A DNA stretch of 32,000 nt, taken from the NCBI GenBank assembly GCA_041941795.1, contig CP145872.1, positions 481,179-513,178 of the forward strand, in the 5' to 3' direction. Every line of letters begins with the position of its first letter. Position 1 is the first letter of the stretch. Positions 2,877 through 31,859 of this stretch are shown here, piece after piece. The translations under genes and the position numbers were made by a program. The notes under the pieces are model-generated. The model was not told the origin of the DNA and made no database searches. It was given only the letters and a program-made list of their open reading frames with translations. Source of the DNA: Candidatus Saccharimonadota bacterium. GTDB taxonomy: Bacteria > Pseudomonadota > Gammaproteobacteria > Enterobacterales > Enterobacteriaceae.

Positions 2877-3008
2877 TTATTCTAGCAACCAGTGTTCTAA
2901 ATCACTAGTTTTACATTGTTTACTACAAAACGGACGAAAAATTTCTTTTTGTTCCCAAAAAATTTTTTTACCACAGCGGGGACATTCTACTTGGATATTA
3001 TTTATGAT
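2877..3008 (-). CDS. yacG: DNA gyrase inhibitor YacG (small zinc-finger protein); start codon uncertain
   Basis: Absent from the ORF track because it is under 60 aa. The minus-strand frame reads IINNIQVECPRCGKKIFWEQKEIFRPFCSKQCKTSDLEHWLLE*. This matches the E. coli YacG core (CPxCGK..W..FRPFCSKxC..DL..W). It is convergent with secA, as in E. coli. There is no in-frame ATG/GTG/TTG after an upstream TAA. AGGAG (3021-3017) lies 8 nt before an ATC at 3008. Confidence 0.6.
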   Translation of the reverse strand: MINNIQVECPRCGKKIFWEQKEIFRPFCSKQCKTSDLEHWLLE

Positions 3009-3331
3009 AAATTGTGCTCCTGATTATTTCATTTTTTTTTGAGAATTTTTTTATAAAAATCTATTGGCATATCATTTATGGGGAAGGATTTCAGTTACAC
3101 TCTTTTAGATGACAAATAAAAAATAATTTGACTTGTGGGATAAATATAAATACCAAATATAATTTAGTATTCATATTATGAATGTTATTCATAACAATTT
3201 TTTTTTGGGAGGTGTTAGCATGAACTGCGTAATTTTATTATTGATCCGATACTTCAAAGATTATGTCAATAATAATGTATTTCTCACATATATCAAAGGC
3301 TTATTAGCAAGTAAAGTCTAATAATTAGTTA

Positions 3332-4310: not shown

Positions 4311-4823
4311 TTAATCTTGATTTGTGCATAACAATGTCATTTTTTTTAATTTATTAAAAATTTTTTTCTGCTTAATTGGAGTCAGGTAATCAATAAATAT
4401 TTTGCCTAAAAGATGATCCATTTCATGTTGAATACAAATAGCTAATAAATTATTTGCTTTTATCACACAAGGATTTCCTGTGATAGTTAAAGTACTAATA
4501 GTAACCTTTTTAGCCCGTGGAATAAAAGCCTTCTGTTCAGGAATAGATAAACATCCTTCTTCAATACTAATTTCCCCTTCTGTTTCTAACAATACGGGGT
4601 TAATAAGTACTAAAGGTTTATCTTTTTTTTCAGATATATCAATAACAATAATTTGTTGATGAATATTCACTTGTGTAGCAGCTAAACCTATCCCATTTTC
4701 TGTGTACATAAGAGTCAACATATTTTCCGCAATTCGCAGGATATCTTGATTTATTTTTATTACGGGCCGTGCAATTGTTCGGAGCCGCTGATCCGGATAA
4801 ATTAATAACCGCAGAGGGGACAT
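4311..4823 (-). CDS. def: Peptide deformylase
   Basis: The 170-aa ORF carries the three deformylase motifs [16 protein letters not shown] and QHEMDHL. Confidence 0.95.
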
Positions 4824-7380: not shown

Positions 7381-7517
7381 TAGTTTCTCCAATAAAAAAT
7401 TTTTATTTTTATAAAACTTTTTAAGTTTACACTTTATCAATCTTATCTAAGACTATGCCGCGGATATTTGCGAGAATGGGCATAAATATGCCTAAAATAA
7501 TATTAGGATGACATATC

Positions 7518-7830
7518 ATGAATGGAGAAGTTGTTTCAAACAATTATTTTGTTGATAAAAATTATTACCTGAATTTTCCCATCATGATAATTTGACTCTT
7601 AAAGAAGCTCAGAGATGATAAATATCTGGTAGTACCTTCTCCATGTTAGAGGGGTCAAAAAAGCAAAACTGTCAATGATGAAGAACCCAAAATTTGTCGA
7701 GGTATAATATCGTTGAAACCCTTCTTCCACTACTTCGTACGAATAATGGTGGATCAAATATCTTACCTGTATTAGGAGTAGGATAACTAAAATAGTTTCT
7801 CGGTAGGAAAATACTTTATGCAAGAAGATT
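7518..7830 (+). pseudogene. maoP: Decayed maoP/yifE (Ori macrodomain protein) with frameshifts and in-frame stops
   Basis: From ATG 7518 the frame reads MNGEVVSNNYFVDKNYY (cf. E. coli [21 protein letters not shown]). After a shift near 7570 it reads EFSHHDNLTLKEAQR** (cf. GFSRHGDFTIKEAQLL). A third frame reads RGQKSKTVNDEEPKICRG, preceded by a TAG (cf. GKREPVTEEEKLFVAVCRG). It is divergent from hdfR, as in E. coli. The 3' limit is approximate. Confidence 0.55.
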
Positions 7831-8326
7831 ATTTAGATAACGATCCTTAACATAAAGCACTCTAAGTTTCGAGGAAATTAAAAGTTATTATGATATATGA
7901 ATGATATAATTAAATTGATCATCGGCTAATTTATATTTATTCATAATATCATTATATGATTACGCCATAATTTTTTACTTAAATATAAAAGGTAAAGTAT
8001 GAACTTTTCATCTATAATAAGAAGAAAATATTCTATGCGTCTATAGAAAAATAGTTAGATGGAAGTTATTAACTCCTACTCTGACTGCTCCGAGTAGGTA
8101 CCAATGTTCTCTCCTGGAGTGTTTAGTTATTTTCACCTGTATTCCTTTATCTCCGGTGCTTTATCTACGAAGTAAGTATGGTATATTATAAAAAAGTAGG
8201 TTCAACAAATAATCAAAAGGCTCAAGAAAGAGCGAAAAATAAAATTTAACTCGTCGATAAGAAGTGATCTAAGTATTGATGGGTTAAAATTTTTATGCTA
8301 AAAAGGATACACTTGTGGAGAACAAC

Positions 8327-12335: not shown

Positions 12336-12402
12336 GCATCTTCCTCAGTTCAGTTTCATTTTGCTAGGTTAATCCTTGTTGCTCATAAGTAATGGAGGCA
12401 TA

Positions 12403-12888
12403 ATGAAATTTTCTAAAATGCATAGTTTGGGTAATGATTTTATGATTGTGGAATCAATAACACAAAATATAATCGTTTCACATTCACTTATTCGTAGGAT
12501 GGCTGATCGAAGACCAGGAATAGGATTTGATCAATTTTTACTAGTTGAAATACCTAAAAATGATCATACTGATTTCCACTATCGTATTTTTAATTGTGAT
12601 GGTAACGAAGTAACACAATGTGGAAATGGAGCACGATGTTTAGCTAAGTTTGTTAATTTAAAAGGGTTAACTAACAAAAAGAATCTTATAGTTAGTACTA
12701 AAAAAGGAAAGTTATTTCTGGTAATAGAAGATAATGAACAAATATGTGTAAAAATGAACGAACCAAATTTTACGCCCGCAATAATTCCATTTCTAGCAGA
12801 TACTATTCATAATAAATATCCCATAGTAGTAGGCGATGATACTATTATGTGTAGTGTAGTATCTGGAATAATTTCTGATCTTCAATAA
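12403..12888 (+). pseudogene. dapF: Truncated diaminopimelate epimerase (N-terminal ~160 of ~274 residues only)
   Basis: MKFSKMHSLGNDFMIV...FHYRIFNCDGNEVTQCGNGARCLAKFV...NEPNF is colinear with E. coli DapF residues 1 to about 160 and includes the first catalytic Cys (QCGNGARC). The ORF ends at VVSGIISDLQ*, and uvrD begins 3 nt later. The second domain, with the second catalytic Cys, is absent. ATG 12403 is preceded by GGAGG. Confidence 0.75.
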
Positions 12889-12890
12889 AT

Positions 12891-14894
12891 TTGTTGGTGC
12901 TAAAAAAAATTGAATTTAATGATATTTTAAAATCTTTAAATGATCAACAACGGAAAGCTGTGACTACTACGCACCCCAATTTACTGGTGCTGGCAGGCGC
13001 TGGAAGTGGTAAAACTAGGGTATTAGTGCATCGTATTGCTTGGTTAGTTAAAGTACAGCATTGCTCACCACTTTCTATTATGACAGTTACTTTTAATACT
13101 CAAGCTGCCGATGAATTATGTCATCGTACTCAAAAAATACTCGGCTTAAAAGTGAGAGGAATGTGGATAGGTACTTTTCATAGTTTAGCACATCGCTTAT
13201 TACGTAATCATTATTACGCAGCCAAATTACCATCTAATTTTAGGATTATAGATCAAGCAGAGCAACTCCGATTAATAAAAAAAATAATTATTAAATATTT
13301 TCCTCAAATACGAGAGGCAGAACAGGCACTGTACTATATAAATAGTAGAAAAAATGAAGGATTGAGACCTGATACTCCTACTGAAATTAGTGAAATTCAG
13401 CATCGACAAAACCATTTTGTCCATATTTATAAAATATATCAAAGTATGTGTGATAGGGTTGGACTGGTAGATTTTTCAGAGTTATTACTGCGTGTTAAGG
13501 AAATGTGGTTAGATAATCCATCTCTTCTGCAGAAATACCGCTCCAGATTTAATCACATCTTAGTTGATGAGTTTCAGGATACCAATAATATTCAATACGA
13601 ACTTATTCAGTTGCTATCTAATAATCATAATAATATTATGATAGTAGGAGATGATGATCAATCTATTTATAGTTGGAGAGATGCTAACACGAAAAATATT
13701 CAGCGATTTATTACAGATTTTATTGAAGTAAAAATTATTAGACTCGAACAAAATTATCGATCTCCAAACTATATCCTAACTGCTGCTAATGCACTTATTG
13801 CTCATAATATAGAACGTCTCGAAAAAACACTCTGGACCAATAAGAGTGATGGAGAACGCATAACTCTTTATAAAGCTTATAACGATTTAGATGAAGCACA
13901 ATTCGTAGTAAATCGTATAAAATCATGGCACAAAACAGGAGGAAACCTAAAACAATGTGCTATTCTTTATCGTAGTAAAGCACAGTCTAAAGTTATAGAA
14001 GATGAATTATTGAAATCTAATGTACGATATTATATTTCTGGCAGGATCAAATTTTTTGAAAGACAAGAAATTCAAGATGTGTTGGCTTACCTGAGACTTA
14101 TAGTGAATCATAATGATGATCGAGCATTTGAGCGGATTTTTAATAAACCACCTAGAGGATTAGGAAAGAACACTTTGCAGGAAGTACGAAAAATTTCTAT
14201 CAATAACAATATTTCTTTATGGGATTCAGCATGTACATTAGTAAAACAATCATTCTTCTCCAAAAGAATTCGGCATGCTTTACGTTGTTTTACTTTACTG
14301 ATAGCACAATTAAAACAAAATATTGCAGAGATGGCTCTATATTTACAAGTGGATTATGTGATCAAAAATTCTGGATTAGGTACTTGGTACCAACTAAAAA
14401 TCAAGTTTCCTAAGGAACAACAATCAACGAGAATGCAAATTAAAAATCTTAAGCAGTTGGTAATTATTTCCAGACAATACAGTAATCATCAACATAAAGA
14501 AGGACGGTTTATTTTCGGCTCTCCACTCCAATCTTTTATTTATCATGCTACTAGAGAAAATTTAAGTATCGCGAATAATAATCTGCCATCCGAATATGTT
14601 GATGCCGTACAAATGATGTCAATGCACTGTGCTAAAGGATTAGAATTTCCAATAGTCTTTTTGGTAGGAATGGAAGAAGGTTGGTGTCCCACTCATTATT
14701 CTATTGAGAATAGAGTTCTTATACAAGAAGAGCGTCGCCTCGCTTATGTTGCCATGACAAGAGCCATGAAAAAATTGATAGTCAGTTGGTCTCAAAAGCG
14801 TCGACTTTATGGTAAAGAGCTTTATTATAAGCGCTCTCGTTTTATTAATGAGTTACCATCCCTATGTATTGATTATTTATCTTCTTCTAGATAA
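12891..14894 (+). CDS. uvrD: DNA helicase II UvrD, lacking the extreme C-terminal region
   Basis: It is colinear with E. coli UvrD: LNDQQRKAV, Walker A AGAGSGKTRVL, DEFQDTN, GDDDQSIYSWR, LEQNYRS, CAKGLEFP and EERRLAYVAMTRA. The start is non-ATG (TTG 12891 or GTG 12897). The protein ends shortly after SRFINELP, at 667 aa against about 720 in E. coli. Confidence 0.93.
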   Translation: MLVLKKIEFNDILKSLNDQQRKAVTTTHPNLLVLAGAGSGKTRVLVHRIAWLVKVQHCSPLSIMTVTFNTQAADELCHRTQKILGLKVRGMWIGTFHSLAHRLLRNHYYAAKLPSNFRIIDQAEQLRLIKKIIIKYFPQIREAEQALYYINSRKNEGLRPDTPTEISEIQHRQNHFVHIYKIYQSMCDRVGLVDFSELLLRVKEMWLDNPSLLQKYRSRFNHILVDEFQDTNNIQYELIQLLSNNHNNIMIVGDDDQSIYSWRDANTKNIQRFITDFIEVKIIRLEQNYRSPNYILTAANALIAHNIERLEKTLWTNKSDGERITLYKAYNDLDEAQFVVNRIKSWHKTGGNLKQCAILYRSKAQSKVIEDELLKSNVRYYISGRIKFFERQEIQDVLAYLRLIVNHNDDRAFERIFNKPPRGLGKNTLQEVRKISINNNISLWDSACTLVKQSFFSKRIRHALRCFTLLIAQLKQNIAEMALYLQVDYVIKNSGLGTWYQLKIKFPKEQQSTRMQIKNLKQLVIISRQYSNHQHKEGRFIFGSPLQSFIYHATRENLSIANNNLPSEYVDAVQMMSMHCAKGLEFPIVFLVGMEEGWCPTHYSIENRVLIQEERRLAYVAMTRAMKKLIVSWSQKRRLYGKELYYKRSRFINELPSLCIDYLSSSR

Positions 14895-16093: not shown

Positions 16094-16986
16094 TTCAAAA
16101 AAACGCACTTTTTTTATAAAATAATCAACCAATAAGAAAATTTAATTTTCTTAGAGAAGATGTCGGATGATGTAATTAGTACTTACTCTCTAATATGAAA
16201 AGAGATTATTATTTATATAATTTAAAATTGAATCTGTCTTGATTACAAGATAATAATATTTTTATTTAGTTATGACTAGAGTACTAGCTGAAAGGTGAGC
16301 TCTAATTAATCTAATCAATATTTATTCTACTTCTAAGTACTTTTAAGTCTAAATTATGTAATAAATGTTCGTCCAATCTTCGGGCGTATCGCGGCCAACA
16401 TCTATCTTATGTCAAACTTCTTCTTTTATTATTCCTGGAAATAGATGATGGATGCATCCTGATATCGAATTAAAACCTCGTAGGTGAAAAGAAATTGAAT
16501 TTTTACATGCTTCTTTAAATAGGAGCATCATTAAAAATTTTTTATTAAATATGATTCCTAAAAATAGATCCCCAAAAATAAATTTTTTTTGTTGGATAGT
16601 TAATCCATCAATTGAAGTAAAATTACTACGCATTGATAATCATGAAACATATCCTACTGGAGTAGGTCATCTTACTAAATTTTAGTATCATTTTCTGAGA
16701 AATCAGGATCGAATATATTAGCCAATGAATATCTATAGGATTGGCATGATGTGGGACTCAAAACTCCTGTCCAACTTCGTTAGAATGAATCATTCTTGAT
16801 CCAAGTAAGTTAGTGCAGTCATAGTTATTGTTATTTGCTCATTGTCTGGATTATGTCTTTTTTAAGAGATTAATTTTAATTGATTCAGTGAATCTGCATA
16901 TTTTTCTCTTATTTGCAATTGCTGTTGGTCCAGATATCATTACAACTTATTTTACGTTCAATCGATCTTAAACAAATTTAATCAAA

Positions 16987-17883: not shown

Positions 17884-18557
17884 AATAAAATCTCCCCTCT
17901 AGTCACAAAATTATCCGCTTTAATAAACAAGCTAGGAGTCTCACATTTTTCTCACCTTATCATTTCATTAAAATTTAAGTTAACATATTTTGATATTAAA
18001 AATCATTATAATTAAGGTACCAATGGATTCACGCAATAATGGGAATTATCATAAAATATTTAATAATATGAATCTCCAGGATAGGTTTTTAATTATGTTG
18101 ACATGTTACCAATAATGGTTGAAATCTTGAATTTTTTATCTCTGATAATAAGAGTATGGGGATGACCAATTTTAATCTCCATCTTATTTCTTACCACAGT
18201 AATTTTTAACATTTATCTTGTATTACTTTATTCATGCATCCTCATGAAATGAAGCTGAAGGTAATTGAAGAATGTGTAAATATGTACCGATCCCACATTC
18301 TATTTTTGCAAATACTCGATAAGAAAAAGAATATTTCTTTTTACATCTAAAATTAGATATGATAATATTATCTCAATGTTCTGGCAAAGACTTCCAGAAG
18401 TCATTAGCAGATTATCTTCAACCATAGATAATACTTTGCTTATTAACTTACTGAATAGCATTATGTAAAAGTTTATATTATGACATTTATGAAAAAATAA
18501 TGGTAATGAAATCTTATTTCCTTTGGATTAAATATTATTATCTCTTTTGACAAAGGG

Positions 18558-18584
18558 TTGAATACTATTTATTTCTCCCCATAT
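18558..18584 (+). promoter_or_regulatory. Sigma-32 (heat-shock) type promoter of hslVU
   Basis: TTGAAT (18558-18563), 13 nt, then CCCCATAT (18577-18584) fits the E. coli sigma-32 consensus cTTGAAa-N13/14-CCCCATnT. It lies about 79 nt upstream of the hslV ATG. CCCC is conspicuous in this AT-rich spacer. Confidence 0.6.
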
Positions 18585-18662
18585 AAAAAAAAGAATATAA
18601 TGTATGATTATGTTTTAGACAAAAACCATCTTTTCCTTTAAAGGATAGGAGCTTATTCCTTC

Positions 18663-22524: not shown

Positions 22525-23280
22525 ATGATGAATAAATGGATAGTAGCAAAAGTAACTGCGATCAAACACTGGACCGAAAACTTATTTACCCTCCATGTAG
22601 AAGCACCCGTCTCTCCTTTTATGGCTGGTCAATTTACAAAACTCGGCTTTCAAATTAATAATAAATGTATAATACAACGAGCTTATTCGTTTGTGAACGC
22701 TCCGAGTGATAAAAACTTAGAGTTTTATTTAGTCACTGTTAAAGGCGGTCACCTAAGTACTTATTTACATGGTCTTTCTATAGGCGATCAAATATTAATT
22801 GCTAAAGACTCCGCGGGATTTTTTGTTCTTCATGAGATTCCAAGTTGTAATAATTTATGGATGTTAGCTACGGGTACCGCTATAGGACCATATTTATCTA
22901 TTCTGCAGGAAGGAAAAGATCTAGAAAGATTCGCTAATATAGTCCTTGTACATGCAGTGCGGTATCAGCAAGATATGTGTTATCTTCCCCTAATGCGTAA
23001 ACTTCAGCATAAATATAGGGAGAAACTTTATATCCAAACAATAGTCAGTCGTGAAAAGGTAAGAGGGTCCTTGTTAGGACATATACCTCCATTAATATCT
23101 AATGGAACATTGGAACATAGTATTGGTCTAAAAATTCAACATCAACATAGTCACATAATGTTGTGTGGAAATCCTAATATGGTCCGATCAACACAAGACG
23201 TACTAAAGAATACTAAAAATATGAAAAAACATTTACGTCGGGGACCCCCAGGACATATAAGTACTGAACATTATTGGTAA
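22525..23280 (+). CDS. fpr: Ferredoxin/flavodoxin-NADP+ reductase
   Basis: AGQFTKLG, RAYSFVN.P, LEFYLVTV, LWMLATGTAIGPYLSIL, MLCGNP.MV and C-terminal EHYW are colinear with E. coli Fpr. Confidence 0.93.
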   Translation: MMNKWIVAKVTAIKHWTENLFTLHVEAPVSPFMAGQFTKLGFQINNKCIIQRAYSFVNAPSDKNLEFYLVTVKGGHLSTYLHGLSIGDQILIAKDSAGFFVLHEIPSCNNLWMLATGTAIGPYLSILQEGKDLERFANIVLVHAVRYQQDMCYLPLMRKLQHKYREKLYIQTIVSREKVRGSLLGHIPPLISNGTLEHSIGLKIQHQHSHIMLCGNPNMVRSTQDVLKNTKNMKKHLRRGPPGHISTEHYW

Positions 23281-23355
23281 TTTAATGCATGCATTTTTTT
23301 TCCCAGTCAGTATTTTATTTTTTAGTTTATTTAATGAAATAAGAGAAATATTGAA

Positions 23356-24150
23356 ATGCGATATCCCTTAGTTATAGGTAATTGGAAACTTAATGGTAAT
23401 AACCAAATGGTGAGAGATTACATTGCCACTCTACGAAGTCAGCTTAAAAATATTAAATTTTGTAGGGTAATAATTGCTCCTCCGATAATGTATGTATTCC
23501 AAGCTCATCAAGAGATTGAGGGTAGTTCTATCCTACTAGCAGCACAAAATATAGATATTCATTTAACAGGAGCTTATACTGGAGATATATCAGCGCAAAT
23601 GATAAAAGATATAGGCGCACAATATATTATGGTTGGACATGCGGAACGACGAATATATCATCACGAAAATGATGATTTGATTGCAAAAAAATTTTCTCTT
23701 GTGAAAAAGTTAGGTCTTATACCAGTACTGTGCATTGGTGAAAATCAAGGAGAAAATCAAAAGGGTAAAACGATGGAAGTCTGTATTCGACAACTAAACG
23801 CTCTAATTGATAGAGAGGGGGTTAATGCATTTCAGAATGTAGTCATTGCTTATGAACCATTATGGTCCATTGGAACTGGATTCGGTGCGTCACCAAACGA
23901 GGTACAATTCATACATAAATTTCTTCGAGAACATATTGCCAAACATAGCGAAGCTATAGCTGAGAGTTTAGTTATTCAATATGGAGGTTCCGTTAATACT
24001 GCAAATGCAGCAGAATACTTTAATAAACCTGATATTGACGGGTTATTAGTAGGCGAATCTTCTTTAAATCCATTTAAATTTGCTAAAATTGTCCAAACGG
24101 CAGAAAATATCTATCGAATGAATAATTTAAGAGCTCTTAATAAAGAGTAA
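23356..24150 (+). CDS. tpiA: Triosephosphate isomerase
   Basis: R.PLVIGNWKLNG, GAYTGDIS, VGHAERR, CIGE, AYEPLWSIGTG and QYGGSV are the standard TIM motifs. Confidence 0.95.
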   Translation: MRYPLVIGNWKLNGNNQMVRDYIATLRSQLKNIKFCRVIIAPPIMYVFQAHQEIEGSSILLAAQNIDIHLTGAYTGDISAQMIKDIGAQYIMVGHAERRIYHHENDDLIAKKFSLVKKLGLIPVLCIGENQGENQKGKTMEVCIRQLNALIDREGVNAFQNVVIAYEPLWSIGTGFGASPNEVQFIHKFLREHIAKHSEAIAESLVIQYGGSVNTANAAEYFNKPDIDGLLVGESSLNPFKFAKIVQTAENIYRMNNLRALNKE

Positions 24151-24378
24151 TATTTTATTATAAATAATACGCTTATTTTTTTATCTGCAATCCCTCTGGA
24201 ACAAGGAGCCTTTCTAATCTATCTCAGAAAGGAGTGAAATTTTAATTAGTGGTAAATTATCATCAAATTCTAAATATTGAATAAAGAAAATCGGTCTAGA
24301 TTTTCTGGTGCCAAGCTTGTGTCTTCCAGTGCCATTGGGAAGAAAATTAATTTTTTACTTAATATTAGTAAAAATTAT

Positions 24379-24822
24379 TCATTTAGTTCCCGATACTAAA
24401 GGTAGATGTTCTTTATTCCATCCCATGATTCCCCCTTCTAAAATATATATCTTTATAAAACCTAATTTTTTAATTTTTAAAGCAAATTGCTTTTCTTCAC
24501 TATAATTTCGCCCAGATCCTACTATAATAATAGGATACGATTTGTATTTTAGTAGTTCCTGCCAATAACCTTTCTTAATATTACTGGATAATATATTGAT
24601 AGAATTATATATATGTCCTTGGTAATACTGCTGCTGAGTTCGAATATCAATTACTTTAGCAGATTGTTTATTCATTAAAAGAGTTGCTTCAGTACAACTT
24701 ATCATATTTACGCGGTTAACTAAGGACGACTTAAGAGTGAAGACTACTGTCAACACCAATAATATTAACCAAGTATTACAGATTATAGGGTGTGAACTGT
24801 AAAACTGTATTATTTCGGCCAT
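24379..24822 (-). CDS. Membrane-anchored rhodanese-homology domain protein, YibN-like
   Basis: The 147-aa ORF has an N-terminal TM helix (WLILLVLTVVFTL) followed by a rhodanese-type pattern (VIDIRTQQQYYQGHIYNSINI ... PIIIVGSGRNYS ... ILEGGIMGW). The position where rhodaneses carry the catalytic Cys reads Gly (IVGSGRN). The YibN orthology is tentative. Confidence 0.6.
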   Translation of the reverse strand: MAEIIQFYSSHPIICNTWLILLVLTVVFTLKSSLVNRVNMISCTEATLLMNKQSAKVIDIRTQQQYYQGHIYNSINILSSNIKKGYWQELLKYKSYPIIIVGSGRNYSEEKQFALKIKKLGFIKIYILEGGIMGWNKEHLPLVSGTK

Positions 24823-25009
24823 TAAGATTTATAACTCCACTAAAATTTTAGTATCATCAAAAGATAGACATCCAGTATTTCACTCATCAGATTATCTATT
24901 TAACTCACTCTAATCCGATGCTTACAAGTATTGATTAAAAATTTAACTCCTCTCAAATAAGAGTCTTGCCATCAATTATAGGATAACATTGTGGTCATCA
25001 TATTAGCTC

Positions 25010-25831
25010 TTAAGTATCAATTAAGATTGACAATTTCGGCAAAAAAAAAGTACTGCGTTTTTGGTAGTTTATACGTTCAATTAATTTAGAACATTGATGG
25101 CATAACTCACCTGTACGTCCATATACATTAAGTAACTTTCTAAAAGTTCCTATCTGCCCATCGACGTGACAAAAATCTCGAATAGTAGTTCCTCCATAAA
25201 TTATGGCTCGTTGCAGTACTATTCCAATAGCTTCTACTAACTTTTGTGCTTCATTAAAATTTAATGTTGAAATTTTGCGAATCGGAAATATGCCGGCTAA
25301 AAATAAAGATTCATTAGCGTAAATATTACCAATTCCTACTACAAATTTATTATTCATTAAAAATGATTTAACTCCTAATCTGCAGTTACGAGATTTATTA
25401 AATAAATAAGAACCACAAAAATCGCTACTTAATGGTTCCGGTCCTAATGTTTTTATATACTCACAAGACTCCGGATCATTACTCCATCTCAAAGATCCAA
25501 ATTTACGTGGATCAGTGTAACGTAAAATTGTTTGGTTACTCATAACCATATCTATGTGATCATGTTTAGAGGATGATGTTTCCAATGAAACCAGCCGCAA
25601 GCTTCCCGACATCCCTAGGTGGACTATAATATAACCTAGGTTTAATTTGATGATGAGATATTTTGCTCTTCGTCGCACACTTAATATTTGCTGATTTCTA
25701 AGATCGTATATTTCTTTGGAAACGGGATATTTTAGAATACCATTACGAATCTTAGAAAAAAGAATAGTTTTACCTACAAGAGCTTTTTCTATCCCACGAC
25801 GAATCATTTCAACTTCGGGAAGTTCTGGCAT
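25010..25831 (-). CDS. mutM: Formamidopyrimidine-DNA glycosylase (Fpg/MutM), C-terminus frameshifted in a T9 tract
   Basis: MPELPEVE (the N-terminal catalytic Pro follows Met), the H2TH region and the first zinc-finger pair CHQC are present. After coding-strand T9 (plus-strand A9 at 25041-25049) the frame reads FFLPKLSILIDT* and lacks the second Cys pair. See the findings. Confidence 0.9.
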   Translation of the reverse strand: MPELPEVEMIRRGIEKALVGKTILFSKIRNGILKYPVSKEIYDLRNQQILSVRRRAKYLIIKLNLGYIIVHLGMSGSLRLVSLETSSSKHDHIDMVMSNQTILRYTDPRKFGSLRWSNDPESCEYIKTLGPEPLSSDFCGSYLFNKSRNCRLGVKSFLMNNKFVVGIGNIYANESLFLAGIFPIRKISTLNFNEAQKLVEAIGIVLQRAIIYGGTTIRDFCHVDGQIGTFRKLLNVYGRTGELCHQCSKLIERINYQKRSTFFLPKLSILIDT

Positions 25832-25870
25832 ATTAAATCTCTTTAAGAATCCGGATTCTGTCTGGGTGAA

Positions 25871-26038
25871 TTAAATTTTTGCTTCTTTATAAAAAACATG
25901 TTTCCTGATTTTAGGATCAAATTTTCTCAGCTGTATTTTTTCCGAATGATTTTTTTTATTTCTGGTAGTAGTGTAAAAATGTCCTGTTTGGGCCGAAGAA
26001 ACTAGTTTAATATTTTCTCTCGGAGTTTTTTTAGACAT
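25871..26038 (-). CDS. rpmG: 50S ribosomal protein L33
   Basis: Absent from the ORF track (55 aa). The minus strand reads [55 protein letters not shown]. This is colinear with E. coli L33 ([20 protein letters not shown]...LRKFDP..R.HV.YKEAKIK). It lies directly downstream of rpmB. Confidence 0.93.
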
Positions 26039-26291
26039 ATTTCTTATCCTTGTTTTTTGGGATATTAATTTTTATTTTTCTATCTGATAGGATTGACTTA
26101 ATGCCTTTTTTATCAATGTTGCGAATTCCTTTTCGAGTTACACGAAGTTTCACAAAGCGATTTTCTTCTTCTATCCAAAACTTATGAAAGTGTAAGTTAG
26201 GTCTAAAACGTCGTTTAGAAGCATTCATAGAGTGAGATCGCTTATTACCAACGGTAGGACGTTTACCAGTTACTTGACATAATCTTGACAT
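26031..26291 (-). CDS. rpmB: 50S ribosomal protein L28
   Basis: [39 protein letters not shown] is colinear with E. coli L28, so the start is ATG 26291 rather than the ORF-track 26348. The C-terminus is about 8 aa longer than in E. coli and overlaps the rpmG start by 8 nt. Confidence 0.93.
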
Positions 26292-26376
26292 AATTCTTTT
26301 ATACTTATATTTTATATCATATAATTCATTATACCTGATTTTTCTCATATAAGTAATATTATTTTCTTAGTTAATC

Positions 26377-26838
26377 ATGAAAAAAAATATAGAAATTAAA
26401 ATTCTTGATAAGAGACTAAAAAAACTTTTTCAATTACCTAGTTATGCTACTCCAGGATCTGCGGGACTAGATCTCAGAGCATGTATGGATCAAATGATTG
26501 AGTTATCTCCCGGAAAGACTATTCTTGTTTCAACTGGGTTAGCAATTCATATTAAAGATCCTACTTTAGCAGCAATAATTTTACCTAGATCTGGTTTGGG
26601 TCATCAACATGGAATTGTTTTGGGAAATTTAATTGGACTCATTGATTCAGACTACCAAGGGGAAATTATGATGTCAGTATGGAATCGGGGAGAAAAACAC
26701 TTTGTGATCACTCCGAATGAACGGATTGCACAATTAGTGTTTGTACCTATAGTGCAGGTTGCACTCAATATTGTGGACAATTTTAGTAGTTCTAGCCAAC
26801 GTGGAAGAGGAAGTTTTGGACATACGGGAAATATATAA
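26377..26838 (+). CDS. dut: dUTP diphosphatase
   Basis: [38 protein letters not shown] and [10 protein letters not shown] are colinear with E. coli Dut. Confidence 0.95.
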
Positions 26839-27387
26839 TCTCAGACAGACTATGAATTTGTTAATTCAAATATAAACTGCTTATGGTGACTATAGAACTA
26901 TAGTAATAATTTTGACTAATTATGGCTATAATTAAGCACGTCGTCAAGAGATTAAAATGATGTTATAAAGAGAATAAAGTTCACTTAATAAGTGTATATA
27001 ATTACAAAAACTTTCCTGAATATGAGACATTGGTATTTTTACTATAAACTCACTTATTTTCTAAGTGACTAATAATGTTCTCTTAGATATATAAATAAAT
27101 TTTATGTTTTGGATAGATGCCTATATTTTAGGTTCACCAACAGTTAAATATCTAGAGTGATATGTTCTATCTTTTAGAACAAAAAAATTTGTAATTTTCC
27201 AGGATAAAGTGATCCTCTCTCTTATAAGAGAGATTCTTAATTTTATTATTTGTCTAGGACGATATACTTTTTATGTATGGATGATTTCTCAGTTGAGAAT
27301 ATCCAATATATTTGAGCTTCGTTATTATTGAATAATAGCTAGCATTAAACTTTTTAATATTTTTTTGAGAAGGAGGATAATTTTTAT

Positions 27388-28251
27388 ATGATTCGCAGCA
27401 TGACTGCTTTCACCAGAAATGAAATAAAAAGAGCGTGGGGACATGCGGTTTGGGAAATTCGTTCTGTCAATCAACGTTATCTAGAAACTTATCTGCGTAT
27501 TCCAGAATCTTTTCGAACTCTGGAACCAGAAATTCGTCAGCGTATAAGTAAAAAGTTAACCCGGGGAAAAATTGAATGTTTTTTACGATTTGACAGTAAT
27601 TCTCAATTATCCCTAAATATTAATAAATTACTTGTACAACAATTACTCCGAGTCGTCACTTGGATTCAATCACAAAATAATGGACAAGGTATAATTAATT
27701 GTTTTGATATTTTGCGATGGCCCGGAGTGATATTAACAGAAAAACTAGATTTCAATAGTATTGGAACGGAATTGCTAACTGTATTAGATAGTACTCTTGA
27801 TGATTTAATTAATATTCGTGAACTAGAAGGTTCTAGTTTAAAACGTTTTATTGAACAGCGATTAATTAATGTAAGTAATGAAGTAGCTAAAGTACGACTA
27901 CTATTGCCAGATATAATTAAATTTCCAAACGAACGTCTGGTAGCAAAAGTGCAAGAAGCAAAAATGAAGTTAGAAGAGAATATATTTTTCCAAGACATTA
28001 TGTTGATTGTCCAACAACGGGGTGATGTGTCGGAAGAATTAGATCGCCTGGAGACACATATTAACCAGATTTATCATATTCTAAATAGGAAGGAGGCCAT
28101 TGGGCGACGATTAGATTTCATAATGCAGGAGTTAAACCGCGAATCTAATACTATAGCATCTAAGTCGATAAATTCCGAGTTAACTACATCAGCCATTGAA
28201 ATTAAAGTTCTAATTGAACAAATGAGAGAACAAATACAAAATATTGAATAG
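27388..28251 (+). CDS. yicC: YicC-family protein (stress-induced endoribonuclease family)
   Basis: MIRSMTAFTR, W.HAVWEIRSVNQRYLETY.R.PE.FR.LEP and the C-terminal RRLDF.MQE.NRESNT.ASKS...IE.KVLIEQMREQIQNIE are colinear with E. coli YicC. A strong RBS (AAGGAGG) lies upstream. Confidence 0.92.
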   Translation: MIRSMTAFTRNEIKRAWGHAVWEIRSVNQRYLETYLRIPESFRTLEPEIRQRISKKLTRGKIECFLRFDSNSQLSLNINKLLVQQLLRVVTWIQSQNNGQGIINCFDILRWPGVILTEKLDFNSIGTELLTVLDSTLDDLINIRELEGSSLKRFIEQRLINVSNEVAKVRLLLPDIIKFPNERLVAKVQEAKMKLEENIFFQDIMLIVQQRGDVSEELDRLETHINQIYHILNRKEAIGRRLDFIMQELNRESNTIASKSINSELTTSAIEIKVLIEQMREQIQNIE

Positions 28252-28299
28252 TGACGTAACTATCCCTCGTCTTGACGTATCGTCTTTTTATCTCTTGAT

Positions 28300-28554
28300 C
28301 TATTGAATATTATTTTTCCCTGATTGATGCGCAGACAAGGATTTACTTACATGTCTATCTTCATGCTTAATAATATCAAAAATACTTTTAGCAATTAATC
28401 TTGACTCAATTTCACGCAGTGCAATTACCGTACATTTATCGTTTTTTGCAGTACCTAAGATGTTCTGATTATAAATTTGGATCTGTCGTGCCCTTTTAGT
28501 GGCTAGAAGCACTAAATCAAAACGATTACAAATTTTTTCTAATGCATTTTGCAC
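28300..28554 (-). CDS. rpoZ: RNA polymerase omega subunit; true start unclear
   Basis: VQNALEKICNRFDLVLLATKRARQIQ...KCTVIALREIE is colinear with E. coli RpoZ residues 6 onward. The ORF-track start is GTG 28554. The ancestral ATG (28570-28568) is one base out of frame. It lies downstream of gmk, as in E. coli. Confidence 0.85.
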   Translation of the reverse strand: MQNALEKICNRFDLVLLATKRARQIQIYNQNILGTAKNDKCTVIALREIESRLIAKSIFDIIKHEDRHVSKSLSAHQSGKNNIQ

Positions 28555-28584
28555 TGTTATCCGAACCCATACCTACTATTTCCT

Positions 28585-29220
28585 TTAATCTTTTAATAAT
28601 TTACTAATTATATTACTATTACGTTGTACTTGCTGGTGTTTTTTTAAACCTTCGGCATTTACAATGTTCTTTAAATCTGATACTGCTTGTTCATAAATAT
28701 CATTAATAATCAAATAATCATATTCCTGATAGTGTTTAATTTCCGTCACTGCTTGGTCTATGCGTTTAGCAATAGATTGTTGACTTTCTTGTCCCCGATG
28801 ATATAAACGTCTAACTAATTCTTCTTTAGAAGGAGGTAAAATAAAAATACTAGATATAAAAAAGGTAGAAATTTTCTTGCGGATCTGTTGTGCTCCTTGC
28901 CAATTAATATCTAGGAATACATCTACACCGATCGAAAGTACAGGTTCGATGCAGGATCGTGCTGTTCCATAAAAGTGTCCAAATATCCGTACATACTCTA
29001 AAAATTCTCCATCTTTGATCATCTTGATAAATTCTTCATGAGAAATGAAATAATAATGTAGTCCGTGTTTTTCTCCGGAACGTTTTTTTCTAGTGGTATG
29101 GGAAATGGATAGTTGAGCAGAAGAACTGTTTTGGTCTTTTAATACCTGCTGAATTAAACTAGTTTTTCCAGTTCCACTGGGAGCAGAAACTATAAAAAGT
29201 ATCCCTTGAGTTTTAGTCAT
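28585..29220 (-). CDS. gmk: Guanylate kinase
   Basis: [40 protein letters not shown] and EYDYLIIND are colinear with E. coli Gmk. Confidence 0.95.
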
Positions 29221-29394
29221 GTCTATTTTTCTGTATTGATTTTTTATCTAGATAAAGATAATATGTAGTTTACTACCAAATGAATTTGGCGCATTATAAT
29301 ATAAGTACTTTCTTATCTTTTTAAAGATAAAATTCACAAAATCTCTATTCTAGAGAGATTTTAGTTCAGTTCTTCTTAAAGAAGGAAAAATTAA

Positions 29395-29937
29395 ATGGGG
29401 TTTAATAGTATTCCTGCGGGCTACAATGTGCCCGATGATATTTATGTAATTATCGAAATTCCCGCGAATACTAATAATCTAAAATATGAGATCGATAAAA
29501 AGAGTGGTGCTCTTTATGTAGATAGATTTTTAACTAGTGCTATGTTTTATCCATATAATTATGGATATATAAATCAAACATTAGCTTTAGATGGAGATTG
29601 TCTCGATACTTTGGTACTTACTCCTTATTCTTTACACCCGGGTTCAATCATTCGTTGTCGTCCAGTGAGTATCTTAAACATGACTGATGAGTCTGGTTAT
29701 GATTCCAAGATTATTGCTGTTCCACATAACAAATTAACGGTCGAGTATGATCATATAAAAGATTTAAATGATTTACCAGAATGGATATGCGCAAAAATAG
29801 TGCATTTTTTTGAACATTACAAGGATATGGAACAAAATAAATGGTCTAAGATGATAGGATGGGACAATGTCCAAGCTGCTAAACAGGAAATTATCAAGTG
29901 TTATGAAAGATTAATTAGTCAAAATAGAGAGCAATGA
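29395..29937 (+). CDS. ppa: Inorganic pyrophosphatase
   Basis: [11 protein letters not shown]...[38 protein letters not shown] and HFFEHYKD are colinear with E. coli Ppa. Confidence 0.95.
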
Positions 29938-30162
29938 AATTTCTGAAATAGACAGTAAAATGTCTTCTTTTTATAAAAAAAGAATTATTACGTGAGGATG
30001 ACTTACTCTTTAAGTAGTTAAAAGTATTTTTTTAGTGAGATTATATCCAGTTTGTAAGAAAATTTTTTTTTAAAAAAAAGACTTCTCTATTTACCTAGCT
30101 AGTATTGCTATTAGTTAAATAATATAGTAAGATAAATAAGTCAACGTGCTAACCTATTATTT

Positions 30163-30217: not shown

Positions 30218-30310
30218 TGAGATAAGTTCTGTTAAAAAGTTTTAACGGAATGAATAGATTGGAGTTCTTACCTCACTAAGTATAAAAAATCTTATGGGGT
30301 AATAAAATTG

Positions 30311-31859
<1,549 letters not shown>

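Follow-up and report, generated by a model that had tools for sequence, protein, structure and literature searches.

A probable recent frameshift in a nine-thymine tract of mutM in a bacterial genome assigned to the beetle symbiont Dasytiphilus

The window, the whole stretch of 32,000 nucleotides that was analysed, carries on its minus strand a mutM/fpg gene that follows directly on rpmB and rpmG (Table 1). This gene order is conserved at every Dasytiphilus locus examined, placing mutM in its orthologous position. The rpmB ORF as listed encodes 105 aa, against 75-79 aa in relatives, and overlaps rpmG by 8 nt; the surplus N-terminal residues are probably an artefact of choosing the first in-frame start. 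The 3' end of mutM reads, on the coding strand, CGC AGT ACT TTT TTT TTG CCG AAA TTG TCA ATC TTA ATT GAT ACT TAA, in which a run of nine thymines covers the last base of Thr261 (ACT), the codons for Phe262 and Phe263, and the start of the following codon. The 273-aa protein encoded in this frame ends in STFFLPKLSILIDT before the stop and lacks a second CxxC motif.

Table 1. Features of the mutM locus and the 16S rRNA gene, in window coordinates
Feature	Position	Strand	Evidence or remark
mutM/fpg ORF as encoded (T9 frame), 273 aa	25010..25831	-	ORF translation, Pfam, E. coli Fpg match
T9 on coding strand (A9 on plus strand), +1 frameshift site	25041..25049	-	
Ancestral-frame tail TGC CGA AAT TGT CAA TCT TAA = Cys264-Arg-Asn-Cys267-Gln-Ser-stop	25021..25041	-	
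First zinc-finger Cys pair Cys244-His-Gln-Cys247, intact	25091..25102	-	
TAA stop of the T9 frame, 11 nt past the ancestral stop	25010..25012	-	
Catalytic N-terminus Pro2-Glu3, intact	25823..25828	-	1k82 alignment, invariant columns
rpmB (as listed)	26031-26348	-	directly upstream of rpmG-mutM, same strand
rpmG	25871-26038	-	between rpmB and mutM, same strand
16S rRNA gene	30310-31859		

Deletion of one T from the run yields a 269-aa MutM ending STFFCRNCQS, with its stop at 25023-25021 and a complete zinc-finger motif, C244-x2-C247-x16-C264-x2-C267; the ancestral-frame tail is translated only when one T is skipped. The repaired protein aligns end to end with E. coli Fpg (residues 2-268 against residues 1-267 of 1k82, E = 1.6e-89), which bears out the colinearity with the E. 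coli C-terminus proposed in a preliminary description of this sequence. The same description had mutM broken within the T9 run, the second Fpg CxxC regained by removal of one T, and the plus-strand A9 at 25041-25049; every one of these sequence details is correct, and the A9 lies exactly there. Both versions of the protein contain the Pfam domains Fapy_DNA_glyco (PF01149; E = 4e-31, residues 1-113) and H2TH (PF06831; E = 3e-23, residues 129-219), whereas zf-FPG_IleRS is returned for the repaired version only, at 20.6 bits and slightly below the cut-off of 21.3, the Pfam search of the T9-encoded protein having returned no zf-FPG_IleRS. Cys244 and Cys247 occupy invariant columns in two Fpg alignments. 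The locus is mutM by descent and encodes in its T9 form a protein without one defining feature of Fpg, the complete zinc finger.

The length of the tract is itself unremarkable. The window contains five A/T 9-mers, compared with 5.27 +/- 3.4 expected from composition, and what goes beyond chance is the intact -1 frame downstream. Four of the five A/T tracts of at least nine bases are non-coding, and that in mutM is the sole coding one, which fits an origin of genic 9-mers by slips from 8-mers.

The organism that carries the window is identified as a Listrus-clade 'Candidatus Dasytiphilus stammeri', a dasytine beetle symbiont with a genome of about 0.5 Mb. The best database matches of the repaired MutM are proteins from Dasytiphilus MAGs of Listrus beetles, at 86% identity; the GC content of the window is 30-37% outside the rRNA gene; and the order gmk-rpoZ-yicC-dut-rpmB-rpmG-mutM-rhodanese-tpiA-fre-glpK is found also in Dasytiphilus genomes from Listrus beetles. 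Dasytiphilus is a tyrosine-provisioning bacteriome symbiont of dasytine beetles, with a genome of 0.44-0.60 Mb and 28-34% GC (Wierz et al. 2024, PMC11191362). The gene-content survey in that study records mutM in 20 of 20 strains and mutY in 0 of 20, and mutT, K03574, 8-oxo-dGTP and nudix are all missing from its KO table (PMC11191362).

A comparison of the tract in sister genomes, suggested in the preliminary description, was carried out by reading the mutM DNA of eight other Dasytiphilus genomes (L033, L034, L035, L044, L043 and L004-L006) at this site. In four of the eight (L034, L035, L033 and L044) the tract is T8 and in frame (ACT TTT TTT TGY), in L043 it is an in-frame T7 (ACA TTT TTT TGC), and in the remaining three (L004-L006) it is interrupted as T4GT3 (ACT TTT GTT TGC), again in frame, with Phe replaced by Val. 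The substitution spectrum of the clade, described below, suggests that this last variant derives from T8 through a T>G substitution of the A:T>C:G class. All eight relatives share an in-frame C-terminus of the form C-x-x-C-Q-x-stop. Among them L034 is the closest relative of the window strain, with 95% nucleotide identity in mutM; protein identity is 70% for L033 and 61% for L044. The tail encoded in the -1 frame of the window, CRNCQS, is identical in amino acids to those of L034 and L035 and matches L034 at 19 of 20 nt, the single difference being synonymous (AGA to CGA). The downstream frame is thus undecayed, as had been stated at the outset, and the similarity of a 20-nt tail, taken alone, carries little information on the age of the frameshift. 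Because all eight relatives are in frame, T9 is strain-specific and recent; it was found only in data sets carrying the identical strain. The T-run itself is an old by-product of a conserved Thr-Phe-Phe-Cys motif written in AT-rich codons and held in frame across the group.

The remainder of mutM shows no sign of relaxed constraint. Across 16 Fpg proteins 80 columns are invariant, among them Pro2, Glu3, Arg109, Asn169, Arg259 and, in the repaired frame, the four Cys; the repaired window protein was one of the 16, hence these columns are kept in it by definition. The dN/dS between the window and L034 is 0.33 for mutM (dN 0.036, dS 0.110), compared with 0.10-0.77 for eight neighbouring genes. 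With substitutions polarised by two outgroups, the ratio of non-synonymous to synonymous changes on the window branch is 13:8 in mutM and 42:31 in the eight neighbours (Fisher P = 0.80), and non-synonymous changes on the window branch versus the L034 branch number 13 against 5 in mutM and 42 against 27 in the neighbours (P = 0.42). Relaxed selection on mutM was rejected on the basis of this agreement with the neighbouring genes in both dN/dS and polarised counts. A mutational signature of mutM loss was rejected as well, since G:C>T:A changes, the class expected to rise when MutM is lost, are not in excess on the window branch (17/98 versus 13/63, P = 0.68). These comparisons and the in-frame state of all eight relatives favour the very recent shift that the preliminary description had listed among its alternatives. 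Either the frameshift is young relative to the divergence of about 5% from L034, or function is still supplied; the absence of decay fits both equally.

The mutational background in which these changes arose was characterised in nine genes (window 22525-29937) compared with L034, L035, L004, L005 and L006 over 5433 aligned sites. On the six Listrus-clade terminal branches A:T>C:G transversions account for 192 of 460 polarised substitutions and are the dominant class on every branch; A:T>G:C transitions account for only 23 of the 460. The equilibrium GC content predicted from per-site rates is about 0.36, near the observed 0.33. Dominance of A:T>C:G resembles the signature expected of mutT deficiency, and such a spectrum fits with the KO table of PMC11191362, which has no mutT entry. 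With mutY recorded in none of the strains, the lineage appears to have kept no GO-system gene other than mutM. In a broad bacterial survey the presence or absence of mutT had no effect on mutation pattern (PMC11493085), a result to which the Listrus clade may be a clear exception.

Whether T9 is the true genomic state was addressed with independent assemblies of sequencing runs. Logan assemblies of SRR27829358, SRR27829360, SRR27829361 and SRR27829362 all encode the exact 273-aa T9 product, in SRR27829362 on a 41-kb contig, and every compared part of the contigs of these T9 runs matches the window at 100% identity. A fifth Logan assembly, SRR27829359, has T8 and encodes the exact, intact 269-aa product on one 3065-bp contig that is identical to the window apart from the tract. 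This run was judged against the other assemblies on four contigs totalling 20.9 kb, over which it carries no substitution and differs by three single-base deletions, each within an A/T run of 8-9. The shortened tracts make up 3 of the 14 long tracts covered, and several more are ambiguous in length. Apart from mutM, SRR27829359 has A7 for A8 at 199-206 (secA codons 6-9) and at 12902-12909 (the 5' end of uvrD). The secA A8 is in frame in the window and matches the conserved N-terminus of SecA, and its shortening to A7 would be predicted to break an essential gene. The A7 at 12902-12909 uncouples uvrD from its start codons: the apparent start of uvrD on the plus strand, TTG/TTG/GTG, lies directly upstream of the A8 run (12891-12909), and a one-base slip there would cut the gene off from all canonical start codons. 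Contigs of SRR27829359 also stop inside or beside homopolymers at window positions 4346, 10721, 23300 and 26384; in the other short assemblies no contig ends at a homopolymer.

SRR27829359 therefore looks like an instance of run-specific homopolymer under-calling or of a mixture of tract lengths. The -1 differences at the secA and uvrD controls make its T8 weak evidence for an intact mutM allele, and T9 is very probably the predominant genomic state. Assembly error as the source of T9, an alternative raised in the preliminary description, is disfavoured: T9 is reproduced in four run assemblies in addition to the window and T8 is found in one, which is also one base short at control tracts. A broader form of this alternative, in which the true state is T8 or a T8/T9 mix in a polyploid symbiont population and the T9 of the window reflects a consensus or assembly choice, is unlikely though quite conceivable. 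It draws on the identity of the SRR27829359 contig to the window over 3065 bp except for the tract, with an intact MutM encoded; on the homopolymer contig ends of that run, which show mixed tract lengths in its reads; and on the use of Nanopore R9.4.1 reads, subsequently polished, for one Listrus symbiont genome in the source study (PMC11191362). Against it stand the agreement of the four other run assemblies with the window on T9 and the apparent under-calling at secA and uvrD, by which the lone T8 is more likely an artefact. A minority T8 population or a T8/T9 mixture within the symbionts is possible. More generally, agreement or disagreement of run assemblies at homopolymers needs control tracts before an allele is called intact or broken.

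A genomic T9 could nevertheless be compatible with function if the frame were restored during expression. Frameshifts in poly-A/T runs of the insect endosymbionts Buchnera and Blochmannia, some of them rescued by transcriptional slippage, have reportedly been described by Tamas et al. in 2008 and by Wernegreen et al. in 2010, and also by Williams and Wernegreen in 2010 (PMC3017870). Applied to mutM, such a reading holds that T9 is fixed and that enough MutM arises from RNA polymerase slippage (giving U8 or U11) or from a +1 ribosomal shift on UUU_UUU_U, so that the frameshift is rescued and maintained; this is improbable. The reading has some attractions at the level of the site: re-pairing of tRNA-Phe from UUU to UUU in the +1 direction would be perfect, with a product predicted to be exactly STFFCRNCQS. 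In the RNA, a U11 transcript would restore the frame with one additional Phe. The site also contains U_UUU_UUU, a classical -1 slippery heptamer, which counts against rescue since it would deliver the wrong (third) frame. Position directly downstream of rpmB-rpmG makes mutM probably well transcribed, and apart from the frameshift the gene is undamaged, with no relaxation of constraint. Bacterial RNA polymerase is moreover reported to slip efficiently in vivo on tracts of this length, nine (PMC5009743), and 4-8 genes with homopolymer frameshifts per Blochmannia genome have been treated as functional on account of slippage (PMC3017870).

The direction of the required correction argues the other way, since mutM needs the less common event, -1 or +2 in the RNA or +1 at the ribosome. 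In Buchnera transcriptomes the usual error at homopolymers is a single-base insertion, not a deletion: homopolymers hold 151 of 157 insertions but 16 of 57 deletions, 80% of the insertions add just one base, and restoration of a reading frame was not seen in any instance (PMC5574713). No rare codon is evident beside the site, the sequence upstream of the run has no Shine-Dalgarno-like stimulator, and neither a terminator-like signal nor a hairpin was scored nearby. Programmed ribosomal frameshifting was rejected because the shift is not conserved in orthologues and no stimulatory element accompanies it.

The likeness to known rescued genes is close in some respects. In Buchnera and Blochmannia, as here, a one-base indel lies in an A/T run of 9 in an AT-rich reduced genome, and the rescued genes are otherwise intact and show no accelerated evolution, so that mutM resembles them in having a single indel in an A/T tract of about nine or more within an otherwise undamaged gene. 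The well-studied rescues, however, are conserved between populations or species, whereas the mutM T9 is confined to one strain and eight related genomes, every relative examined, are in frame; and those rescues are corrected by the common +1 insertion, whereas T9 requires a deletion or a +2 insertion. The mutM case is also known from DNA alone and belongs to a beetle lineage without an earlier description of this kind. Slippage in Thermus thermophilus dnaX and Shigella mxiE likewise takes place at 9 T or A (PMC5009743), with the same length and base as in mutM and the same enzyme activity, but those sites are conserved, use insertions and yield the slipped product as the normal product, whereas in mutM the conserved state is the in-frame T8. 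Some wild-type MutM may be made, probably at a low background level, by chance slippage of RNA polymerase or ribosome on U9; there is no sign that such slippage is selected or efficient.

A related and distinctly improbable reading has T9 fixed and MutM maintained at a reduced dose through U9 slippage or, as a variant, has T8 and T9 genomes coexisting and interconverting within hosts. If true in either form, it would place the last GO enzyme of a symbiont lacking mutT and mutY under a slippage-dependent or reversible switch, by which the G:C>T:A rate would be tuned while A:T>C:G changes dominate the spectrum.

The consequences of T9 for the unslipped protein follow from the position of the lesion, directly after the second strand of the zinc-finger beta-hairpin. 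The T9 product retains the catalytic domain, the H2TH domain, the first CxxC and the beta-hairpin with Arg259, and has LPKLSILIDT in place of the segment that contains Cys264 and Cys267. This new tail contains no Cys or His, and no homologue of it was found. In AlphaFold models of the T9 and T8 versions, built from one shared alignment of 24 sequences, strands 252-256 and 259-263 are predicted in both; the last blocks have mean confidences of 72/63/51/28 in T9 and 83/72/73 in T8, and in the T9 model only the tail is low. Single Cys substitutions in the zinc finger of E. coli Fpg abolish DNA binding (PMC4176347). The mutM lesion entails the same loss of zinc ligands, here two of four, and differs in that the mutants carry point changes whereas in mutM the entire C-terminal segment after Phe263 is replaced. 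By this analogy the T9 product should be unable to bind zinc, its affinity for DNA should be low or nil, and we infer that it would be inactive or nearly so. The preliminary description expected a defective unslipped product, in agreement with how these mutants behave. That the T9 protein is itself an active glycosylase with a 'zincless finger', as NEIL1 and plant Fpg are, can hardly be right: the DNA-contacting hairpin with Arg259 is encoded upstream of the frameshift, its strands are predicted in both versions, and the family includes zincless fingers superimposable on zinc fingers (PMC4176347), but those members have a co-evolved hairpin scaffold that is absent from the T9 protein, Cys substitutions in the E. 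coli finger abolish DNA binding, the new tail has neither Cys, His nor a homologue, model confidence drops to 51 and then 28 at the end, where the T8 model has 73, and a change one slip old is unshaped by selection.

The account that is probably correct, though well short of certain, is a real and recent +1 frameshift (T8 to T9) that arose by replication slippage in mutM of one Listrus-clade Dasytiphilus strain. Its starting point would be the conserved Fpg motif Thr-Phe-Phe-Cys, which when written ACT TTT TTT TGY in an AT-rich lineage would constitute an old T7/T8 hot spot, kept in frame by selection in the other Dasytiphilus genomes. One replication slip from T8 to T9 in the window strain would then have removed Cys264 and Cys267, leaving mutM at what would be the earliest stage of inactivation, before any further decay. 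Homopolymer indels have reportedly been recognised as the first gene-inactivation step in Buchnera by Moran, McLaughlin and Sorek in 2009. In both Buchnera and Blochmannia, inactivation of a gene usually begins with such an indel (PMC3017870, PMC3268670). The inactivating indels of Buchnera involve the same one-base slip in a coding homopolymer between very close strains, in a gene that is otherwise undamaged. No substantive difference separates that model from the mutM case, and it gives the best fit to the data; the mutM T9 is an ordinary early step of gene decay of a known type, not a new mechanism. Loss of mutM alone raises the mutation rate of E. coli only 1.3-fold (PMC11493085), and the slip should accordingly be opposed only weakly by selection; with this effect and small symbiont populations, weak selection on mutM is plausible.

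A recent frameshift of this kind shows gene loss in a beetle symbiont cleanly at its first step, the rest of mutM being unchanged. The new detail is damage, in one strain, to a mutM that had been counted as 'universally present' in Dasytiphilus. The count of mutM as present in all 20 strains misses the lesion of the window strain because the ORF stays long, and a gene-content table registers it as before. The strain could serve as a natural test of the contribution of MutM where mutY and mutT are lacking.

Several further features of the window concern homopolymers or reduced gene content. A T9 run followed directly by an A8 run (TTTTTTTTTAAAAAAAA) lies at 30063-30079, with the 16S rRNA gene about 230 nt downstream. 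A frame for the DNA gyrase inhibitor YacG on the minus strand (2880-3040; Pfam PF03884, E = 4e-14) is without a canonical start codon, and its sole upstream ATG is followed by an in-frame AAA TAA, directly after an A9 run (3032-3040); the gene is either in decay or uses a non-standard start. On the plus strand dapF (12376-12888) is truncated to 170 aa, comprising the first DAP_epimerase domain only, and ends 2 nt before the uvrD ORF; such a truncation is in keeping with the lysine-pathway erosion that has been reported in symbionts of the Listrus clade. Non-coding DNA without an ORF of a recognisable family fills three stretches of 0.8-0.9 kb (7393-8326, 16094-16986 and 17884-18662), which are long for so small a genome and may be what is left of lost genes. 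L035 retains, between the rhodanese gene and tpiA, a cation-efflux fragment that is absent from the window.
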